The translations under genes were made by a program, and so were the position numbers. Below the pieces are notes generated by a model, which did not search any database, had not been told where the DNA came from, and was given only the letters and a program-made list of their open reading frames with translations. A stretch of DNA of 64,000 nucleotides from a virus. Its lineage: Duplodnaviria; Heunggongvirae; Uroviricota; Caudoviricetes. Position 1 is the stretch's first letter. Each line of letters starts with the position of its first letter. Below are positions 3,231-58,043 of this stretch, in pieces. Location: the IMG/VR virus record IMGVR_UViG_3300044591_001876, positions 11,134 to 75,133 of that record, one strand, 5' to 3'.

Positions 3231-6200
3231 ATGGATCCCGTATTATCCTCGCTATTTCCAGTAAATCAGATAGGATCGGATGGATTCAACTGGTGGATTG
3301 GTCAGGTTGAATCAAATAAGCATGATGATCCTAAAAATTCTGGTAGGTATCGTGTAAGAATTGTTGGTCAGCATCTAAAAGATTGTGATGCTACACCAAC
3401 AACCGAATTGCCTTGGGCAAACGTAATGATGCCAGTCACCGCTCCCTTTACTGACGGTGGTGTTACTGGTGCTTCGGTTGATTTGAGACAAGGTAACTGG
3501 GTGATTGGCTTTTACATGGATGCTGATAAGCAGAAGCCAATTATCATGGGATCTATTGGTCATACTGCTGGATCTACATTAATTAAAAATTATGAAAAAG
3601 ATCCCAATCCAGGTGGCACATGTAAATCATTCACCACCTATTTTGATCCAGAAAGAAATCCATATAAGCATGAGCCTCTACCTGAAGGAAAGAAATCGGA
3701 AGGTAATACGGAGAAAGATGATTCGGAGTACACAAAACCTGGACAAGCTGGAGTAATTGCTGCTGCTATTCCTGGACAAGCTCCTGCTAGTTTCTATGCT
3801 TTGTTTGCTGAGAATACATCAACTAATCCAACTGGTTCTAAACTTTGTGTTGAAATTGCTAATCCAAAATGTGGTTCTGAATCTGATTTGTCTGGTGGAT
3901 TAAAAAATATTTTATCAGAAATGCTTGCTGCTAACCAACAATCTGGTGGGCAACTTGGCGACTATTATGTGAGTCAAATCAATGGAGAATTAGATAACTA
4001 TACAAATGTTGCTAGAGGCTATGTTAATAAAGCAACTAGATTAGTTTCTAGTTTTGTGTCTAGAGCAAAGGGCGAGATAATAAAAGTTGTTAGACAAGGC
4101 ATAGATGGCTTGGTTGACTTAGCATTAACTGTGGACGTTGCTACTACAGATGCCCTAGGCAATGTTAATACCGGACCAGTTGCTCCCGACCTAGGAGTTG
4201 AACCTTTTACACCAATTACTAAAAAAGAAAGTAGATTAAAGCCAGTCATTGATACAATCAATGAAGTTCTTGATGATTTGGGTTGTAGTATTGCTGATTT
4301 TACTGATAGGCTAGCATCTTGGTTGACTGATTTACTTTTAGAAATTTTTATGGAGGCATTCAATGCCGCCACTTGTTTGATTGATGCTGTAATTGAATCT
4401 ATTATTAGTGAAATATTAAATGGTCTTGAAGAAATTTTATCTGTAGTTTTAGGACCACTACAAGATTTCTTAAGTATCTTAGCTGCCCCATTAAACATTA
4501 TTGGATCGGCTATAAGTGCTGTCTTTGATTTGCTAGGTATTTCTTGTGATGGTCCGAATGCTGAGTGTGAAAAAGTTTCAAAGGAGTGTACTGACTGTGG
4601 TTCTGAAGACACTGAAGATTGGCTTGATAAATTACTCAAACAAATTGAAGATGGTCCTTTGGCAGGAACTTCTGTTTGTGCCGAATCAAAAGAATCGCCA
4701 GCTGATGAAGAAACAGGCATCGTATTTGTTGGGGGCATCTTTCAACCTCCAGGAGATGTACCAACAGATGCTTCTCCTACAAGTTTGGAAAAAGTTTTTG
4801 CCTACAAATCAAATGATCTTCAAGTAGTTGAAGGACAAGATGCTGTTTTTACTATTATAAGAGAAGGAAATACTTTACTTTCTTCTAGTATAAAATATCA
4901 AGTTGTTAATTTATCTGCTACAGAAGGAGTGGATTTTATTAAGCCAAATACTGGAGGGACAATTGGGTTTGCTCCTGGCGAGTATCAAAAAACAATAACA
5001 TTTAAAACTCTTGCTGATGATGTTGATGAAGGCATAGAAAAATTTGCTATTAGATTATCAGAATCTGTTACCCCAGAGGGATCAAGAACTATATTTCCTG
5101 ACGGAACAATTTTTGAATGTGAAATTTTAAATTATGATTTAAATTCTATACAACCTCCTGTGGGAGGATTTGATTTTGAGGCACCTAATGGTTTGACTCC
5201 TGCTACAACATCTATAATCAAACCACCATCAAATTTTGTTACAACACCAGTAACAACTTTGACTCCAGTGAACAATATTATTCCTACTGTGCCATTGTAT
5301 ACAGTAATACCAGAGAAAACATTTTATTATGAGGGCACGGAAATAGTATTCAATATTTTTACTAAAAATGTAAAAGATAATACTGAATTAAATTATACTA
5401 TTTTTGGTGATGTTGTTGCTGCTGATATTGTTGGTGGTCAACTTACAGGATCATTTATTGTTGTGGATAACAAAGCAACTGTTAAAATTACAACAACAAC
5501 AGACAATGATTTAGTTGGTGAAATTGTAAATGATGATGGAACTATATCAACAGAAAACATACCAGACCCAACAGAAAGATTAATCTTTGGCATTGATGAT
5601 ACAAATGTTTTCGCTAGTGTTTCTATATTGGGTGATGATATTCCAGTAGAACCATACTATTTTGTAGAAGCTGATAAGAATGTTTATGCTGAGGGAGAAA
5701 CGATAGTTTATACAATAACATCCTATAATGTTCCCAACAATACGGTAGTTACATACGAACTTTCTGGACCAGGCATTACAGAAACTGATATTATCGAGTA
5801 TGAATTATCTGGCACGTTTACTGTAGTTGATAATAAAGCTACAGTAAACGTACAGTTAACGGCAGATTCTGATATAGAACAGTCGGAACTATTAATCTTC
5901 ACCATTACTGGTGTTGATAATGGAGATTTTACTACGGTAATAATTGAGCCAGATAAAACAATTCAAGATCCTGTGGGCACTGTTGTTACCCCAACATTCT
6001 TTGTTCAATCTGATAAAATTGAATATGAGGAAGGAGAAACAGCAGAATTTACTATCACCACAACTAATGTTCCTAATGGAACTAAATTACAATATGTTTT
6101 GTATGGTCCTTCGTTAAAATCATCTGATATTATTAATGGTGTACTGTTTGATACGTTTGTTGTTTATAATAACACAGCAAAAATTTATATTGGTATTAAT

Positions 6201-8707: not shown

Positions 8708-8795
8708 GCGAGTGAGACTTGGTAGTCAGAGGAGTCTTATAAACTCTTTCCGCCAGATTAGCGGCTTTGAGGTGGTTCGAATCCACCCACTCGTA
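8708..8795 (+). tRNA. tRNA-like gene, 88 nt, class-II-like long variable region; anticodon ambiguous (loop reads CUUAUAA)
   Basis: 7-bp acceptor GCGAGTG/CACTCGT (G1-U72), perfect T-arm GGTGG-TTCGAAT-CCACC; anticodon stem GGAGT/ACTCT; D-arm atypical so isotype not assignable by eye. Confidence 0.4.
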
Positions 8796-8799
8796 CCTT

Positions 8800-8872
8800 G
8801 CTCCTTTAGCAATCTGGCGAATGCACCGAACTCATAATTCGGCTAAGGTGGGTTCGATCCCCTCAAGGAGCA
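8800..8872 (+). tRNA. tRNA-Met/fMet/Ile2 (anticodon CAU)
   Basis: Acceptor GCTCCTT/AAGGAGC, anticodon stem CCGAA/TTCGG with loop CTCATAA, T-arm GTGGG-TTCGATC-CCCTC, 73 nt. Confidence 0.7.
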
Positions 8873-8916
8873 CTTGACAATCTGAGCAAAACCTGCTACA
8901 ATTGTCACATACACAT

Positions 8917-8989
8917 GCCCGTGTAGTCCAACGGCAGAGACAGGGGACTTAAAATCCCTCCAGTGTCGGTTCGAATCCGACCACGGGTA
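8917..8989 (+). tRNA. tRNA with anticodon UAA (Leu-UUA decoder?) but class-I (5-nt variable loop) architecture
   Basis: Acceptor GCCCGTG/CACGGGT, anticodon stem GGGGA/TCCCT with loop CTTAAAA, variable CCAGT, T-arm GTCGG-TTCGAAT-CCGAC, 73 nt. Confidence 0.6.
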
Positions 8990-9020
8990 TTCCACTAAAT
9001 AAAACGAGTGGAAAAAAGTA

Positions 9021-9287
9021 ATGAAATACACACTTTCTCAATCATATTGCTTTTATATGGGCGAGGTAGTTCGTATGTATTTCATACAGGGTATGCCATA
9101 TACCTTTGACGAACTTCCTGCCCTCATACAAGACCATCCTTCTGTCCAAACTGAAGCCCTATCTAATAGGGATTTTGATGATGAAGACATGTTTATTTGG
9201 TCTAATTATTTGATGATGGAAGAGGCTCATCCGCTAATGTTTGAATTGGAATTTGAAAATCCTGAGTTACTACCTAAAGATGATTAA
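9021..9287 (+). CDS. Hypothetical protein (88 aa)
   Basis: ORF after tRNA cluster; stop overlaps cpeT start. Confidence 0.4.
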   Translation: MKYTLSQSYCFYMGEVVRMYFIQGMPYTFDELPALIQDHPSVQTEALSNRDFDDEDMFIWSNYLMMEEAHPLMFELEFENPELLPKDD

Positions 9288-9804
9288 AGAATTTTTTAGA
9301 TTAATCGAAGGACGATTCGAAAACAAAATCCAAGCATTTTCTAACCCAAGCAAGTATGCCTTTATTAGGGTAACCCATGTGAACTTGGGTGGTGGTTTGA
9401 TTTATGGAGAACAAGCATACAATTATCAGTTAAACAAACCTTATCGTCAGTTTGTTCTTCAGCCCAAAGAAGAAAACGGACAAATTCATATCTATAATTA
9501 TGAATTGATTGATAAAGAAAACTATACTGGTTTTAAAAGGCTTGACGAAATCGACCAGGATGTGCTAAAATTAAAAAGTGGTTGTGACGTGTTCATGACT
9601 CCCAAAAACAATTCCTTCGTGGGTGGTATCCAGGGATGTAATTGTATGGTAGACTGGAATGGTCGTCAAACCTACCTCCAAAACGAAATTGAGATAACAC
9701 CAACTCATTATTACGTTATGGATCGTGGATTCTGTGCTGAACATAAGCATCAGCTTTGGGGTTCTAAATACGGTAGGTTTGAATTTGTTAGAATGCCTGA
9801 GTAG
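9280..9804 (+). CDS. cpeT: Phycobilin lyase CpeT/CpcT family (cyanophage auxiliary metabolic gene)
   Basis: Start taken at ATG 9280 (track lists 9241); IEGRFENKIQAFSNPSKYAFIRVTH...GGGLIYGEQAY...PYRQFVL matches CpcT/CpeT (DUF1001) signature. Confidence 0.7.
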   Translation: MIKEFFRLIEGRFENKIQAFSNPSKYAFIRVTHVNLGGGLIYGEQAYNYQLNKPYRQFVLQPKEENGQIHIYNYELIDKENYTGFKRLDEIDQDVLKLKSGCDVFMTPKNNSFVGGIQGCNCMVDWNGRQTYLQNEIEITPTHYYVMDRGFCAEHKHQLWGSKYGRFEFVRMPE

Positions 9805-9868
9805 CTCAGCTGGATAGAGCAACGGTTTTGTAAACCGTAGGTCGTCGGTTCAAGTCCGACCTTAGGCT
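9795..9868 (+). tRNA. tRNA-Thr (anticodon UGU)
   Basis: Acceptor GCCTGAG/CTTAGGC, D-arm GCTC-AGCTGGATA-GAGC, anticodon stem ACGGT/ACCGT with loop TTTGTAA, T-arm GTCGG-TTCAAGT-CCGAC; overlaps last 10 nt of cpeT. Confidence 0.8.
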
Positions 9869-9961
9869 CTCGCTTTCACATGGACTGGAAATATCTGGTC
9901 GTAGTGATAGCGTTCAATGTAGGAACCAAAACCTCTCCTTGGTCTTAGTATTCTGTGTCCA

Positions 9962-9998
9962 AGTGAAGTAAAGAGGGGGGCTTAAGGTGATGCTCCCC
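9962..9998 (+). other. Strong G6/C6 hairpin (GAGGGGGG-14 nt loop-CCCCCCTC) in non-coding tRNA-cluster spacer
   Basis: 8-bp perfect inverted repeat; no T-run after it on either strand. Confidence 0.4.
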
Positions 9999-10054
9999 CC
10001 TCCTACCACAACTTCTGGTAGTCTATTGGTAAGGACGGGTGGACAACACACATG

Positions 10055-10084
10055 GAAACTAGGTTCGATTCCTAGACAGAGGAA
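10055..10084 (+). pseudogene. tRNA-like T-arm/acceptor 3' remnant (possible degenerate tRNA)
   Basis: CTAGG-TTCGATT-CCTAG perfect T-arm, but no complementary 5' acceptor or anticodon arm found within 90 nt upstream. Confidence 0.25.
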
Positions 10085-10201
10085 ATAAGGTAAGGAAAGT
10101 AAAAGGAGCATGGGAACCGTATGGAGATACCGCACCTGCCTTGTTAACACCCCTCAAGCCTATCTCGGGACGCCGAATGATGCTCAAACAGAGGGGTCAC
10201 T

Positions 10202-10281
10202 GCCCAAGTGGTGAAATTGGTATACACGCATGACTTAGGATCATGTGCTTCGGCGTGGAGGTTCGAGTCCTCTCTTGGGCA
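10202..10281 (+). tRNA. tRNA-Leu (anticodon UAG), class II
   Basis: Acceptor GCCCAAG/CTTGGGC perfect, D-arm GTG-AAATTGGTATA-CAC, anticodon stem CATGA/TCATG with loop CTTAGGA, 11-nt variable arm, T-arm GGAGG-TTCGAGT-CCTCT. Confidence 0.75.
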
Positions 10282-10282
10282 C

Positions 10283-10302
10283 TTCGGATTACAAATCCGA
10301 AA
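10283..10302 (+). other. 8-bp hairpin (TTCGGATT-ACAA-AATCCGAA) just after tRNA-Leu
   Basis: Perfect inverted repeat; followed by A-run rather than T-run, so not a classical terminator. Confidence 0.3.
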
Positions 10303-10320
10303 TTCAAAAACTAAATACAT

Positions 10321-10367
10321 GAAATCGGGAAAAAAATTCCCGGTAAAAAATCGTCAAAAAAGTTGAG
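10321..10367 (+). promoter_or_regulatory. Conserved intergenic element copy B
   Basis: ~85% identical to 8086-8132; GTTGAGGG end doubles as RBS for the 47-aa ORF at 10376. Confidence 0.4.
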
Positions 10368-10375
10368 GGTAAAAA

Positions 10376-10519
10376 ATGAGCTTACTTTCTAAGAAAGACC
10401 ATGAAATGGTCATCGAGGCACTAGAAACCCTAATCCAAACAAAGGAGGAATCTGACGATAAATTTGAATACTATAATTTACTTAATTGGGTAAAATTGAA
10501 GCAAAAAGACAAATTCTGA
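10376..10519 (+). CDS. Small acidic protein (47 aa), hypothetical
   Basis: ATG 10376 with GAGGG RBS; MSLLSKKDHEMVIEALETLIQTKEE...; below ORF-track cutoff. Confidence 0.3.
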   Translation: MSLLSKKDHEMVIEALETLIQTKEESDDKFEYYNLLNWVKLKQKDKF

Positions 10520-10526
10520 CTTAATC

Positions 10527-10943
10527 ATGTCACTTCTTGAAATTCTATTCAATGAAAAATCTGAAATAGCTGTACAAACCAGAGTTTGTAGGTATTGTAA
10601 AAAAGAAAAACCATTAACTAAAGATTTCTATCACAGAAATCATTCTACCCAAAATGGTTTTAGATATGAATGTAAAGAATGTAGAAAACCGGGAGGTGTT
10701 AAAGACCCTTCAGCTTCTAAGAAATTGAAGAAAAAATATAATCTAAAAACACCACTCCTAGGCACTCCTTGTGCTTGTTGTGGAAAAACTGATCAACTGC
10801 TGGTTTGTGATCATATTCATGGAACTGAAACCATTCGTGGTTTTATTTGTGATAATTGTAATGTTGGTATTGGGAGACTTGGTGATAGTATTGAAGGCGT
10901 AAAAAAGGCACTTAATTATCTTGAGGGAAATTATTTGACATAA
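10527..10943 (+). CDS. Endonuclease VII-like HNH nuclease with N-terminal Cys4 zinc ribbon (possible homing/mobile endonuclease)
   Basis: CACCGKTDQLLVCDHIHGTETIRGFICDNCNVGIGRL matches Endonuclease_7 motif (C.CG..L.VDHDH.TG.vRG.LC..CN..lG); N-term CRYCKKEKPLTKDFY...GFRYECKEC Zn ribbon; sits inside tRNA cluster. Confidence 0.65.
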   Translation: MSLLEILFNEKSEIAVQTRVCRYCKKEKPLTKDFYHRNHSTQNGFRYECKECRKPGGVKDPSASKKLKKKYNLKTPLLGTPCACCGKTDQLLVCDHIHGTETIRGFICDNCNVGIGRLGDSIEGVKKALNYLEGNYLT

Positions 10944-10946
10944 CAA

Positions 10947-11018
10947 TGGAGTGTAGCTCAGTGGTAGAGCGGTCGGCTGTTAACCGATTGGTCGTAGGTT
11001 CGAATCCCACCACTCCAG
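10947..11018 (+). tRNA. tRNA-Asn (anticodon GUU)
   Basis: Acceptor TGGAGTG/CACTCCA perfect, D-arm GCTC-AGTGGTA-GAGC, anticodon stem GTCGG/CCGAT with loop CTGTTAA, T-loop TTCGAAT; starts 4 nt after nuclease stop. Confidence 0.75.
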
Positions 11019-11021
11019 TTT

Positions 11022-11104
11022 GGGTAGGTGTCCGAGTGGTTTAAGGAACCTGACTGTAAATCAGGCGGCTCTGTCCAACGTTGGTTCAAATCCAACCCTG
11101 CCCA
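11022..11104 (+). tRNA. tRNA-Tyr (anticodon GUA), class II
   Basis: Acceptor GGGTAGG/CCTGCCC (one G-U), anticodon stem CCTGA/TCAGG with loop CTGTAAA, 14-nt variable arm, T-arm GTTGG-TTCAAAT-CCAAC. Confidence 0.75.
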
Positions 11105-11144
11105 TTGGCGATACTGCCAAACCAGAATCCCTTCCGTGTGCTTT

Positions 11145-35593: not shown

Positions 35594-35629
35594 AAGGGGG
35601 TTGACTGCCCTCTTTTTTTGTGCCATACT
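35594..35629 (+). terminator. Composite element: G5/C-run hairpin + T7 terminator whose loop is the -35 TTGACT of a sigma70-like promoter
   Basis: cacaaGGGGG-TTGACTG-CCCTC-TTTTTTT, then 17-nt spacer to CATACT (35624-35629). Confidence 0.55.
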
Positions 35630-35651
35630 ATCTTTATTGAAACGCTTCGCC

Positions 35652-43753: not shown

Positions 43754-43782
43754 TTGACAGACCACGATCACCCTGTTATTTT
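43754..43782 (+). promoter_or_regulatory. Sigma70-like promoter upstream of RNA-repair genes
   Basis: TTGACA 43754-43759, 17-nt spacer, TATTTT 43777-43782. Confidence 0.35.
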
Positions 43783-43802
43783 AATTGAAATTAATCAAGA
43801 CC

Positions 43803-44972
43803 ATGAACTACGATTTTCCTGAAATTAATCATATTGACGATGTGATTCCTCACATTGAAGATCTCCCTGAGTTCAAGGTGATGGTCAAGGATTGGTACAC
43901 TGTCATCAATTATATGGTGGCGTTTGATGAAACGTTTTCGCTTGTTCGTGAGCGTAGTCACCACAATATGAAGATTCGTCGTGAGTGTCGTGGTCTGATC
44001 TTTGATACTGAAACTGGCAATCTTATTTCTCGCCCATACCATAAGTTTTTCAATGTTGGCGAGCGTGAAGAAACTGCTATCAACAAAGTTAATCTGTATG
44101 AACCTCATGTGGTTCTGGAGAAACTTGATGGTTCTATGATCCGTCCGATTCCTACAAAAGAAGGTTTTCGTCTTGCTACCAAAGCAGGTGTTACTGATGT
44201 AGCAATGAATGCTGAGGTGTTTATTGCTGACAAACCAGAATATGCTAAGTTTATCCGTTCCTCTATTGCTTGTGGGATGACCCCCATTTTTGAATGGGTC
44301 TCTAGAAAAAATCGTATTGTAGTTGATTACCCAGAAGATAATTTAATTCTTACTGCTGTTAGGGACAATCTAAGTGGAACTTACCTCCACCATTCAGTCA
44401 TTGTTGAAACTGGCAAAAACTACAATATTCCTGTTGTAAAATCACTTGCTGGACTTGCTGTTCAAAACATTGATTTGTTTGTCAATCAGGTTCGGGAATG
44501 GGATGATGGTGAAGGTATTGTGCTACGATTTAATAGTGGGCACATGGTTAAAGTGAAAGCAGATGAGTATGTGCTTCGTCACAAATCCAAGGAGCAGATC
44601 AGTCAGGAGAAAAACGTTCTCCAGACCATCCTAAGTGACTCTGTGGACGACGTTGTGCCCCTGCTCACCCCTGACGACGCCACCCGCCTTAAAGCGTTCC
44701 AGAACGCCTTCTGGCTATCTGTAGACGATCTTGCCAGCGAGATGGCAGACATGTATAATGCTGGTAACATCATGTATCCAGAGAAAAAGGATTTCGCTAC
44801 CAAGTACGTACAACGTATGATTCTACCGATTCACGCTCCTATCATGTATGCTATGAAAGGTGGTAAGGGTTCCCGTGCTACCATTATAGATATGATCAGC
44901 AAGTCGCTAACGACTCAAACTAAAATTGAACAAAATCGCTGGTTGTGGGGGCATCTGAAATGGAATGTGTAA
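43803..44972 (+). CDS. rnlA: RNA ligase 1 (T4 RnlA-like)
   Basis: Start at ATG 43803 (track uses TTG 43785); ECRGLIFD / HKFFNV / EKLDGSM align with T4 Rnl1 ECRGIMFE / EKFFNL / TKEDGSL (KxDG ligase motif I). Confidence 0.7.
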   Translation: MNYDFPEINHIDDVIPHIEDLPEFKVMVKDWYTVINYMVAFDETFSLVRERSHHNMKIRRECRGLIFDTETGNLISRPYHKFFNVGEREETAINKVNLYEPHVVLEKLDGSMIRPIPTKEGFRLATKAGVTDVAMNAEVFIADKPEYAKFIRSSIACGMTPIFEWVSRKNRIVVDYPEDNLILTAVRDNLSGTYLHHSVIVETGKNYNIPVVKSLAGLAVQNIDLFVNQVREWDDGEGIVLRFNSGHMVKVKADEYVLRHKSKEQISQEKNVLQTILSDSVDDVVPLLTPDDATRLKAFQNAFWLSVDDLASEMADMYNAGNIMYPEKKDFATKYVQRMILPIHAPIMYAMKGGKGSRATIIDMISKSLTTQTKIEQNRWLWGHLKWNV

Positions 44973-45469
44973 TGCTGTGTGGTATACCAACGTCAGGTAA
45001 ATCTACCTTCGTTGAACGTCTTCTCAAGACAGATTATTGGAAAAATTGTGTAGTGCTGTCCACAGATTACTACATTGATTACTACACCAAGAAATTTGGG
45101 AAGACATACAACGAAGTGTTTGATGAATACATTGACGAAGCAACCAAAAGCATGAACAAATGCTTGGCACATGCTATCGAAAATGAGAAGCACATCATCT
45201 GGGATCAAACCAATCTTGGTGTGAAAGCACGAAGAAAGAAACTGAATAAACTCCCGTCACATTGTCACAGAGGAGCAATCTATTTTGAAGTTCCTTTGGA
45301 AGAAGCAATGGAACGTAATGAACACCGTGAAGGTAAGTTCATTCCAAAAAGCATTCTTCATAGAATGTATCACCAATTTGAAATTCCCACTGTAGCAGAA
45401 GGATTTGATTATGTCGAATGTGGAACTGAAGAAATGCTTCGTCTTCGATCTCGATGGCACTATTTGTGA
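44960..45469 (+). CDS. pnk: Polynucleotide 5'-kinase (P-loop), T4 Pnkp N-domain-like, encoded as separate gene
   Basis: Walker A GIPTSGKST near N-terminus; ATG 44960 or 44972 (track uses GTG 44945); overlaps rnlA stop. Confidence 0.65.
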   Translation: MECVMLCGIPTSGKSTFVERLLKTDYWKNCVVLSTDYYIDYYTKKFGKTYNEVFDEYIDEATKSMNKCLAHAIENEKHIIWDQTNLGVKARRKKLNKLPSHCHRGAIYFEVPLEEAMERNEHREGKFIPKSILHRMYHQFEIPTVAEGFDYVECGTEEMLRLRSRWHYL

Positions 45470-45872
45470 TGTTCGTCACCGAAGACAATATGTAGCAACG
45501 AAACCCCGTAACTGGGATGCTTGGAATGCTGGTCTGGTAAATGATACACCTAATGTAGCAGTACAAAAAGTATTTCAAGCACTTCGTAATGATCAGGAAG
45601 TTGACTTGATTATTGTTTCTGGTCGCTCAGATGACTATAAAGAACAAACTATCAAGTGGTTGACTGACAACGAAATCTTCTACGATGAGATTTATATGAG
45701 AAAGTATAAGGATCATCGTGATGATGCGGTTGTCAAAAATGAGATTGCGGATGAGATTGAGAAGACACACAAAATTCTTGGTGTGTTTGATGATCGCCAG
45801 CGTGTTGTCAACATGTGGATTGAGCGTGGCATCTGGGTGTTTGATGTTGGACAAGGCAAGGGACAGTTTTGA
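45411..45872 (+). CDS. Polynucleotide 3'-phosphatase (HAD family), T4 Pnkp C-domain-like, separate overlapping-frame gene
   Basis: DLDGT HAD motif I (FVFDLDGTICDV) at aa 10-14; ATG 45411 (track uses TTG 45405); 59-nt overlap with kinase gene in another frame. Confidence 0.65.
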   Translation: MSNVELKKCFVFDLDGTICDVRHRRQYVATKPRNWDAWNAGLVNDTPNVAVQKVFQALRNDQEVDLIIVSGRSDDYKEQTIKWLTDNEIFYDEIYMRKYKDHRDDAVVKNEIADEIEKTHKILGVFDDRQRVVNMWIERGIWVFDVGQGKGQF

Positions 45873-45907
45873 AACTGACACAAGAGGGTTGACACCCTCT
45901 TTTTTAT
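45873..45907 (+). terminator. Composite terminator/promoter: AGAGGG-TTGACA-CCCTCT-TTTTTAT hairpin with -35 in loop, 17-nt spacer, TATACT
   Basis: 6-bp perfect stem, loop = TTGACA (45879-45884), T-run, -10 TATACT 45902-45907. Confidence 0.6.
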
Positions 45908-45940
45908 GGTCTATACTGACTTCAGTTCAAACAAAAAAAC

Positions 45941-46141
45941 ATGTCCAGTTCTTCCTCTTCCTCCAGCGGTATCGGTTTCCCTGGTCTGCTGACTGTTCTG
46001 TTTGTTGGTCTGAAACTTACTGGCCACATTACTTGGCCATGGGTGTGGGTGCTGTCGCCGTTGTGGATTAGTGCTCTTATCTTTCTTTGTGCTGTTGCCA
46101 CTATCGTGATTGTTGGTGTTATTACTGGTGCTTTCAAATGA
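45941..46141 (+). CDS. Small membrane protein (66 aa) with poly-Ser N-terminus
   Basis: MSSSSSSSSGIGFPGLLTVLFVGLKL... two hydrophobic helices. Confidence 0.45.
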   Translation: MSSSSSSSSGIGFPGLLTVLFVGLKLTGHITWPWVWVLSPLWISALIFLCAVATIVIVGVITGAFK

Positions 46142-46456: not shown

Positions 46457-46636
46457 AAACCAAAGTATCATGTGATTCTTGAATTAGCAATCGAGCAGGG
46501 TGTTCAACGTGGTTGGCGTCTTGCTCACAAACATGTAGAAAATCCTGAAGAGCATGTAATCATTGATCGTATCAATGATGCTGTGATGTCTGCTATTACT
46601 GATTACTTTACCTTTGAAGATTCTGATTTCGTATGA
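46454..46636 (+). CDS. Hypothetical protein (60 aa)
   Basis: ORF. Confidence 0.4.
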   Translation: MKPKYHVILELAIEQGVQRGWRLAHKHVENPEEHVIIDRINDAVMSAITDYFTFEDSDFV

Positions 46637-47676
46637 ACACCGTCCGTAAACTTGCTTCCATTAAACCTATTACTTACATCAAACCCATTGAAGGTGCTGA
46701 TGCTATTGAGTGTGCTATCGTGGATGGTGGTTGGCCAGTAGTGGTCAAGAAAGGTGAGTATAAAGTTGGTGATATTGCTATCTACCTTGAGATTGATAGT
46801 TGGGTGCCTCATGAACTTGCTCCATTCCTCAGTAAGGGTCAAGAACCCCGTGAGTATAATGGTGTGAAGGGTGAACGTCTCAAAACTGTTAAACTTCGTG
46901 GTCAAGTAAGTCAGGGTCTTTTGCTGCCGATTGAACTTACTTTCTGGCGTGATATTGGCACCGACCTTACCGAATCGCTGGGTATTCAGAAGTGGGAACC
47001 GCCCATCCCTGCTCAACTTCAGGGAACGATGAAGGGTAACTTCCCCCACTTCATTCCTAAAACTGACCAGGAGCGTTGCCAAAACCTTCGTAAAGACATC
47101 TTTGAGGAGCACGAAGGTGAAACCTATGAAGTAACTCTCAAACTTGATGGTAGCAGCACCACCATTTATATCAAAGATGGTGAGATTGGTGTGTGTTCTC
47201 GGAACATTGACCTTAAGGAAACTGAGGGTAATAGTTTCTGGAAAGCAGCACGGGAACAGAACATCATTGAACCTTTGCTTGAACTGAGCAAAGAGAAAGG
47301 TGAAGAGTATGCCATTCAAGGTGAGTTGATTGGTGAGGGTATTCAGGGTAATCCCGAGAAACTCAAAGGTCAGCGTTTCTACCTGTTTGACATCTACAGC
47401 ATCACTGAAGGTCGTTATTTTGAACCATTTGAGCGTTATACCGTTCTTGACCAACTGAGGATGCTTGGTGCTGATGTGGAGCATGTTCCTATCATTGACC
47501 AACACGTTTTTGTTACCCAACAATACGAAACCATTGACGACCTTCTTAACTTTGCCGAAGGTCCATCGCTGAACCCACAGACCAAACGTGAAGGTATCGT
47601 ATTCAAATCGTGGGATAGTGATTTCACTTTCAAAGCGATTGCTAACTCGTATCTCCTAAAGCATAAAGACCGATGA
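46633..47676 (+). CDS. ATP-dependent RNA ligase, N-terminal OB-like domain + nucleotidyltransferase (DraRnl/Rnl5-like)
   Basis: KLDGSSTTIYIKDGEIGVCSRN = ligase motif I KxDG; 347 aa; N-terminal ~100-aa domain precedes NTase as in DRB0094-family RNA ligases. Confidence 0.65.
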   Translation: MNTVRKLASIKPITYIKPIEGADAIECAIVDGGWPVVVKKGEYKVGDIAIYLEIDSWVPHELAPFLSKGQEPREYNGVKGERLKTVKLRGQVSQGLLLPIELTFWRDIGTDLTESLGIQKWEPPIPAQLQGTMKGNFPHFIPKTDQERCQNLRKDIFEEHEGETYEVTLKLDGSSTTIYIKDGEIGVCSRNIDLKETEGNSFWKAAREQNIIEPLLELSKEKGEEYAIQGELIGEGIQGNPEKLKGQRFYLFDIYSITEGRYFEPFERYTVLDQLRMLGADVEHVPIIDQHVFVTQQYETIDDLLNFAEGPSLNPQTKREGIVFKSWDSDFTFKAIANSYLLKHKDR

Positions 47677-53302: not shown

Positions 53303-53337
53303 GGGGGCTTGACGCCCCCTTTGTTTTGCCCTATATT
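53303..53337 (+). terminator. Composite terminator/promoter: GGGGGC-TTGAC-GCCCCC-TTTGTTTT, 17-nt spacer, TATATT
   Basis: 6-bp G/C stem with -35 TTGACG (53309-53314) in loop; -10 53332-53337. Confidence 0.55.
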
Positions 53338-53361
53338 AAGTGAGTCAACAACAGAGGACCA

Positions 53362-57984: not shown

Positions 57985-58018
57985 GGGGGCTTGACCAGCC
58001 CCTTTTTCATGCTATGAT
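57985..58018 (+). terminator. Composite terminator/promoter: GGGGGC-TTGACCA-GCCCC-TTTTT, 16-nt spacer, TATGAT
   Basis: -35 TTGACC 57991-57996; -10 58013-58018. Confidence 0.5.
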
Positions 58019-58043
58019 ACGAGGGTAGTCAAGGGAGACCCCC

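Follow-up and report, generated by a model that had tools for sequence, protein, structure and literature searches.

Separate, overlapping kinase and phosphatase genes in a predicted RNA-repair cassette of a T4-like phage

Phage T4 carries its end-healing kinase and phosphatase on one polypeptide of 301 amino acids (aa), Pnkp, which forms a homotetramer (PMC3592404). In a 64,000-nucleotide (nt) stretch of viral DNA (Caudoviricetes; IMG/VR record IMGVR_UViG_3300044591_001876, positions 11,134 to 75,133; hereafter the window), the same two activities are predicted from two open reading frames (ORFs) that lie in different frames and overlap. The source of the window is, to judge by its tail, baseplate and helicase genes, a T4-like myovirus, and all long ORFs of the window are on the + strand. 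Between 43754 and 45917 (+ strand), three packed genes, encoding a ligase, a kinase and a phosphatase, are flanked by a sigma70-like promoter and by a terminator hairpin with an embedded promoter. This arrangement raises the question of whether the locus encodes one Pnkp, joined by recoding or broken by a sequencing error, or two enzymes made separately. A preliminary description, made from the sequence of the window, had recognized RNA-repair genes like those for Rnl1 and Pnkp of T4, which domain matches and conserved catalytic residues bear out. It left two options for the healing enzymes, split genes or genes joined by a programmed frameshift. The first option stands and the second does not: relatives always have two ORFs, mostly with an intervening gene. 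The locus is, with high probability, a T4-type RNA-repair cassette of three separate enzymes, in which the phosphatase has its own translational start and the overlap was left behind by a deletion.

Two healing enzymes in two genes

The kinase gene ends at 45469, and the phosphatase gene starts at ATG 45411 in the +1 frame relative to it, giving an overlap of 59 nt (45411-45469, +). The overlap agrees with the earlier observation that a HAD-type ORF with the motif FVFDLDGT begins 59 nt before the kinase stop. The phosphatase frame is closed upstream by a stop at 45393-45395 and is open from 45396. Alignment to T4 Pnkp, proposed in the preliminary description, places the kinase on residues 6-143 (pairwise BLAST, 24% identity, E 1e-5) and the phosphatase on residues 160-299 (pairwise, 28% identity, E 3e-9). 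Likewise, in the 295 positions of phrog_505, the T4-type Pnkp family, the kinase covers 7-142 (7e-14) and the phosphatase 157-294 (2e-34), and in the bacterial enzyme Pnkp1 (4xrp) the two cover residues 16-155 and 175-307. Because they match successive parts of all three, the two proteins represent the kinase and phosphatase halves of Pnkp, separated where its domains meet; in T4 Pnkp the kinase domain comprises residues 1-147 and the phosphatase domain residues 148-301 (PMC3592404).

Viral contigs searched with the kinase and phosphatase as queries yielded 61 loci (numbered with the prefix L). The order ligase-kinase-phosphatase is found in about 30 distinct viral contigs and, since it recurs in so many independent contigs, is not due to chance. 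No continuous kinase-phosphatase ORF occurs among these related contigs. The spacing from kinase stop to phosphatase start is -59 nt in the window, L001, L002, L003/L004 and L005, -41 nt in L006 and L007, +1 nt in L061, +68 nt in L060, and +177 to +204 nt in 13 contigs (L038-L042, L045-L049, L051, L052, L057). In every relative examined for spacing, the phosphatase has its own start codon. Most relatives have a third gene, in another frame, between kinase and phosphatase, and fusion in one step is therefore impossible there. A search of 5.8 billion proteins returned 737 kinase homologues; none of the best 120 has a HAD domain, all of them being stand-alone proteins of 151-175 aa, and most aligned homologues stop a few residues past EGFDYVE. 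Two ORFs, variable spacing and the lack of any continuous pnkp in relatives are the reasons for preferring the split. Judged from these sequences, the kinase and phosphatase are two separate genes rather than the result of a frameshift or an error, and the split is real and common in relatives.

The phosphatase is probably translated independently, from its own Shine-Dalgarno (SD) sequence GAAGGA (45398-45403, +), 7 nt before the ATG, both lying inside the last conserved codons of the kinase (the SD within those for EGF). Both SD and ATG are invariant in all seven overlapping sequences. The conserved core of the kinase ends at about 45418 (EGFDYVE), and an unconstrained tail, codons from about 45430 to 45466, runs through the phosphatase gene; this tail is absent in most homologues.

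The predicted enzymes

The ligase gene (43803-44972, +) encodes 389 aa from ATG 43803, with an upstream TTG at 43785 as another possible start. The product is an Rnl1-type ATP-dependent RNA ligase by its matches to PF09511 (3e-28, 99.7 bits vs a cutoff of 28.3), to phrog_562 ('RNA ligase and tail fiber attachment catalyst', 5e-68) and to the T4 Rnl1 structure 2c5u (6e-18, reaching T4 residue 317). Pairwise, it aligns with residues 52-300 of the T4 rnlA product (24% identity, E 2e-20). The EKLDGS motif falls opposite T4 TKEDGS (Lys99), as expected from the earlier claim of similarity to RnlA around the KxDG motif. Mutational work on T4 Rnl1 has identified R54, K75, F77, G102, K119, E159, E227, G228, K240 and K242 as essential; these were among the 12 positions checked, all of which are conserved, and the adenylated lysine is K107 (T4 K99). 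The tRNA-specificity domain PF20819 (T4_Rnl1_C) scores 20 bits (E 9e-4), under its cutoff of 27.

The phosphatase gene (45411-45872, +) encodes a predicted stand-alone HAD (DxDGT) polynucleotide 3'-phosphatase of 153 aa. It matches PF25109 HAD_PNKP (1.6e-27, 96.9 bits vs a cutoff of 27.6) and phrog_415 (6e-37). The best match among solved structures is Pnkp1 (1.2e-12), and T4 Pnk (1ltq/5uj0) is matched as well. All ten T4 active-site positions are aligned and are conserved in ten relatives: D13, D15, T17, R24, S70, R72, D105, K109, D127 and D128 occupy the places of T4 D165, D167, T169, R176, S211, R213, D254, K258, D277 and D278, whose roles are described for T4 Pnkp (PMC3592404).

The stand-alone polynucleotide-kinase-like gene (44960-45469, +) encodes 169 aa from ATG 44960, or 165 aa from ATG 44972. 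The first of these (MECVMLCG) is most likely the start, in preference to ATG 44972, at a TAATG junction, and to GTG 44945, because relatives share the residues preceding MLCG and a G-run that resembles an SD (GGAGG-like), and because L002 has a stop immediately upstream. The kinase would then overlap the end of the ligase by 13 nt, which suggests translational coupling of the two genes, in the closest relatives of the window as well. The P-loop ORF that the preliminary description placed after the ligase is recovered, with the sequence GIPTSGKST and a match to PF13671 (3e-19). The protein matches phrog_6931 (3e-28) better than phrog_505, and the closest structure by sequence is the kinase domain of Pnkp1 (1.5e-8), followed by PSTK; T4 Pnk is absent from the PDB sequence matches at E <= 0.01. 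The AlphaFold2 model has a pLDDT of 76 (below 55 in the tail), and the top Foldseek matches in the PDB are CthPnk (4gp6) and mammalian PNKP (1yj5/3zvn), then PSTK and Pnkp1, with modest scores (E ~1e-5, TM 0.5-0.63).

Six residues are essential in the T4 kinase, namely K15, S16, D35, R38, D85 and R126 (PMC2831316). Numbered from Met 44972, the window kinase agrees with T4 at five of seven positions compared: K10, S11, D32, R115 and R119 correspond to T4 K15, S16, D35, R122 and R126 and are invariant in 22 sequences. Several features of the kinase, together with the polarity of the deletion discussed below, weigh against the cassette as read here. No equivalent of T4 Arg38 was found: the sequence reads D32-Y-Y-I35, with Ile35 unchanged throughout the family, although the conserved basic residues K40/K41 (+8/+9) might substitute. 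The equivalent of T4 Asp85 is ambiguous (D78/Q79); MAFFT places Q79 opposite T4 D85, and D78 of WDQTN is aligned with the D of the Pnkp1 motif iiDaTN. Finally, the kinase also resembles enzymes of the PSTK/KTI12 type.

These features could mean that the P-loop protein is some other small-molecule or tRNA-directed kinase or ATPase (PSTK/KTI12-like or zeta-toxin-like), and that the cassette is no complete heal-and-seal system. Matches to Pfam KTI12 (5.8e-10) and Zeta_toxin (1.5e-4), the second place of PSTK among the PDB sequence matches, the Ile in place of Arg38 and source annotations of homologues such as 'Kti12' and 'predicted kinase' all point this way. However, the closest solved structure by sequence belongs to an RNA-repair enzyme, CthPnk and mammalian PNKP lead the fold matches, and phrog_505 is matched. 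The P-loop, the general-base Asp and both lid Arg are conserved, the gene overlaps the ligase stop, and its homologues are syntenic with Rnl1-type ligases in many unrelated phages. A different kind of kinase is thus unlikely. The protein is better taken as a polynucleotide-kinase-like enzyme of a distinct subfamily, for which we infer RNA 5'-kinase activity mainly from gene context and the best structural hits, because of the resemblance to PSTK/KTI12 types.

As a polynucleotide-kinase-like enzyme, the protein would complete an early-transcribed set for the repair of RNA (tRNA) breaks. The HAD phosphatase is predicted to remove the 2',3'-cyclic or 3'-phosphate, the P-loop kinase to phosphorylate the 5'-OH and the Rnl1-type ligase to seal the healed ends. 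The pathway would be that by which T4 Pnkp and Rnl1 counter host anticodon nucleases, with the two healing activities on two polypeptides.

Recoding, error and the origin of the overlap

It is very improbable that either low-level +1 recoding at CUU-CGN (45435-45446; prfB-like in L006/L007) or a novel recognition of the acceptor by D-x-x-I kinases takes place. If the former were true, a fused Pnkp would exist beside the free enzymes, and the shift would set the stoichiometry of a tethered healing enzyme; if the latter, which is an independent possibility, the D-x-x-I family would bind the RNA acceptor in a way undescribed for polynucleotide kinases.

A programmed +1 frameshift yielding a T4-like bifunctional Pnkp, as sole product or beside separate proteins, is extremely improbable. 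The geometry would permit it: the phosphatase is in the +1 frame, which is open from 45396, and a candidate site, CUU-CGU or CUU-CGA (45435-45446), lies just before the DLDGT codons. A CUU followed by an Arg codon lets the Leu-tRNA re-pair on UUC, and such a slip would produce ...EEMLRL-DLDGT and leave the active site whole. At the aligned site, L006 and L007 have UAU-CUU-UGA and UAU-UUU-UGA, which match the nine-base core of the Escherichia coli prfB +1 frameshift site. In these two contigs the kinase stop context (~4469-4483) is UAU-CUU-UGA-U and UAU-UUU-UGA-U, respectively, and a +1 slip there would enter DLDGT. Against recoding stand the SD and ATG of the phosphatase, kept at 7 nt from each other in all seven overlapping sequences, and the 13 related contigs with genes ~200 nt apart, at least nine of which (those examined) have a third ORF and stops in between. 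In the spaced contigs the enzymes, 62-67% and 64-89% identical to those of the window, must act separately. Moreover, no SD-like stimulator lies 3 nt upstream, the spacing in prfB, and encoding C-F-V-F-D and Y-I-F-D in the phosphatase dictates the slippery strings; the prfB-like string in L006/L007 is probably a by-product of the latter. The slippery motifs that the preliminary description had suggested looking for in the overlap thus come down to by-products of phosphatase codons. A -1 frameshift is ruled out by frame arithmetic, the phosphatase being in +1.

That a false indel broke one continuous pnkp, which the preliminary description named as a refutation, is next to impossible: beyond two proteins that match the two halves of T4 Pnkp nothing speaks for it, while seven independent metagenomic contigs have the same two overlapping ORFs (62-98% kinase identity), the genes of more distant relatives lie clearly apart, a continuous ORF occurs in no relative, and in most aligned homologues the kinase ends a few residues past EGFDYVE.

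For two separate genes, the relatives with a spacer indicate how the overlap may have come about. Their ~200-nt spacer (+177 to +204) varies at third codon positions and encodes a conserved orphan protein of 75-77 aa (L038 3759-3986, L046 3762-3989, equivalents in L040-L057; consensus MLKKLKVKE.YNHHFEY...GWM.LG.DDEVF.DAFYYFEEV), which has no significant Pfam or PHROG match. In the window, no copy of it was found below E ~0.15. In most spacer-type relatives the orphan ORF starts at GATTATG, within the kinase codons GAT-TAT-GTx (EGFDYVE), is preceded by an SD-like GAAGGA/GAGGGA and ends at the phosphatase ATG. In the window lineage the same ATG (45411) and SD (45398-45403) now open the phosphatase, whose N-terminus, VELKKCF, matches the phosphatase start AEKKKNCF of L038. 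The simplest reading of these sequences is that an ancestral small gene was deleted, which would have joined its start to the phosphatase. The kinase would thereby have lost its usual stop (after ...EGFDYVEKVES) and gained 13-16 extra residues, read out of frame through the DLDGT region of the phosphatase to a chance stop. The 59-nt overlap would then be a historical by-product of the deletion. We infer this scenario from extant sequences, whose comparison does not rigorously root the polarity of the change (loss vs gain of the small ORF).

The deletion fits with a tail that varies in length, is modelled with low confidence and lies where constraint switches frame. Tail length differs by lineage: in L006/L007 an earlier TGA arises from a change of TTC to TTT that is synonymous for the phosphatase. 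Within the overlap, ungapped relatives offer only nine variable sites for the analysis of constraint. Three changes at 45415-45427 are all silent for the kinase, one at 45428 alters both frames, and five at 45434-45464 are all silent for the phosphatase, four of them altering the kinase tail, so that near 45430 the constrained frame changes from that of the kinase to that of the phosphatase. On this reading the locus would be a clean example of how overlaps originate, with an intervening gene deleted and the tail of the upstream gene read through foreign sequence.

Signals, neighbourhood and known systems

The operon limits given in the preliminary description, a sigma70-like promoter and a terminator/promoter hairpin, are both found by consensus scan (43754-43782 and 45882-45917). 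The putative promoter (43754-43782, +; TTGACA-17-TATTTT, extended TG before the -10) agrees with consensus at 10/12 positions. It is kept in L001, L002 and L006 and is lacking in L003 and L007, and L005 has a different hairpin/promoter element. Downstream of the phosphatase, an intrinsic-terminator hairpin (45882-45901, +) combines an 8-bp stem and a T tract with TTGACA, a -35 hexamer, in its loop, the latter belonging to an embedded promoter (45889-45917, +; TTGACA-17-TATACT). The hairpin is conserved in relatives through compensatory stem changes (GGGT/ACCC, GGGC/GCCC, GGGGG/CCCCC) and folds at -12 to -16 kcal/mol (z ~-2 to -2.7). Four such composite elements occur on the + strand of the window (~35594-35640, 45882-45917, 53303-53345, 57985-58030), each with TTGAC (-35) in or beside the loop, a T tract and a -10-like hexamer 16-18 nt further on. 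In T4-like phages, PeSL composite terminator/promoters flank variable gene cassettes (PMC2839356, PMC4122927). The window elements resemble these in being repeated and in overlapping the terminator stem-loop and T tract with a near-consensus sigma70 promoter, and differ in their stem, AAGRGGG...CCCYCTT, from the published consensus stems of RB49, PST and nt-1. Probably, the four PeSL-like elements delimit early gene cassettes.

Directly past the terminator, 45941-46141 (+) encodes a small hydrophobic (membrane) protein of phrog_1374. A near-identity DNA search against cultured phages found no close relative of the window, the sole match being 50 nt in this gene (96% to Synechococcus phage S-PM2, 'T4-like GC 762'). 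A second RNA ligase, of the DraRnl/NgrRnl (Rnl5) type, is encoded at 46633-47676 (+), 0.7 kb downstream of the cassette in a separate transcription unit. It has an N-terminal PF21189 OB domain and a PF09414 RNA_ligase domain, and matches the Naegleria gruberi RNA ligase 5cot over its full length (E 3.5e-103). With Rnl1-type and Rnl5-type genes, the phage thus has two ligase types, like T4. In L038 an Rnl5-type ligase also follows the phosphatase, with a calcineurin-like metallophosphoesterase next. In relatives the repair locus is also a hot spot for insertion of HNH endonuclease genes: L038-type contigs have one between ligase and kinase (L038 2836-3312), and L053-type contigs, which have another (L053 3511-3987), lack the kinase and have a ligase cut short at about residue 246. 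Far upstream in the window, a cluster at 8708-11105 (+) comprises eight tRNA genes (Ile-TAT, Met, Leu-TAA, Thr-TGT, Leu-CAA, Leu-TAG, Asn, Tyr). Spare tRNAs and a tRNA-repair cassette thus occur together in this phage.

Compared with T4 Pnkp (pseT) and Rnl1 (rnlA), the cassette has the same three chemistries and the same folds, and in T4 the two genes are likewise neighbours, 1.4 kb apart. It differs in having two genes for the healing enzymes, in the tight unit of ligase, kinase and phosphatase with overlapping ends, and in a kinase of another subfamily (phrog_6931 beats phrog_505; no Arg38 equivalent). Bacterial Pnkp1, part of the Pnkp1-Rnl-Hen1 complex, also combines a kinase and a HAD phosphatase with a separate ligase. 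However, its kinase and phosphatase are fused and work with the methyltransferase Hen1, whereas the window has an Rnl1-type ligase; Hen1 was not noticed among the genes examined around the cassette, where no dedicated search for it was made. The kinase and phosphatase modules of Pnkp1 barely touch (PMC4411300), which makes a split unsurprising.

The closest precedents are in cultured phages, where an Rnl1-type ligase is directly followed by a stand-alone kinase (38-41% identical to that of the window) and a separate HAD_PNKP-type phosphatase (36-38% identity) is encoded elsewhere in the genome. In contrast to the window, the phosphatase is 2-3 kb away or absent and never overlaps the kinase. 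Roseobacter phage DSS3P8 has a ligase (gp105), a kinase (gp106) and a phosphatase (gp099), and Ruegeria phage RpAliso has the same parts as separate genes. A ligase followed by a kinase is found in Caulobacter phage Cr30 (gp022/gp021), and the pairing recurs in Synechococcus phage B23. In the latter (L064 5432-5904), gp130 aligns with the window kinase in two frames, one covering residues 1-133 and the other 115-148, which suggests a C-terminal frameshift, by sequencing error or as a pseudogene, in the deposited genome. Cyanophage S-TIM5 gp035 is a phosphatase-only protein, and in Sinorhizobium phage phiN3 the kinase adjoins a metallophosphoesterase. Among the distant kinase loci (L008-L031), 15 of 24 have an Rnl1-like ligase within 4 kb, and a profile search found no HAD phosphatase within that distance.

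A large, mostly metagenomic clade of T4-like phages thus uses a free-standing kinase as the partner of an Rnl1-type ligase, and this pair is accompanied by a separate HAD phosphatase, by a metallophosphoesterase or by neither nearby. In annotations, a phosphatase-only protein often goes under the name 'polynucleotide kinase', and the kinases under 'ATPase' or 'Kti12'; in the cultured phages, 'hypothetical' is used as well. The small stand-alone kinase (~150 aa core) and phosphatase (~150 aa) could serve as separate reagents, and a kinase family with no Arg38 equivalent is a loose biochemical end. In a survey of jumbo phages, the Pnkp-type HAD domain ('PKN-HAD') is described as 'usually fused' to the kinase (PMC7824862). 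No paper describing the split as such was found in the literature consulted, which did not extend to the RNA repair survey of Burroughs and Aravind (2016). Nevertheless, the rarity of the split implied by the preliminary description was overstated: published genomes of cultured phages already contain separate kinase and HAD phosphatase genes. The cassette does not represent a new kind of system, and its gene structure is mildly unusual. The two end-healing activities can be packaged in more than one way, and the bifunctional T4 Pnkp of the textbooks is just one of these.

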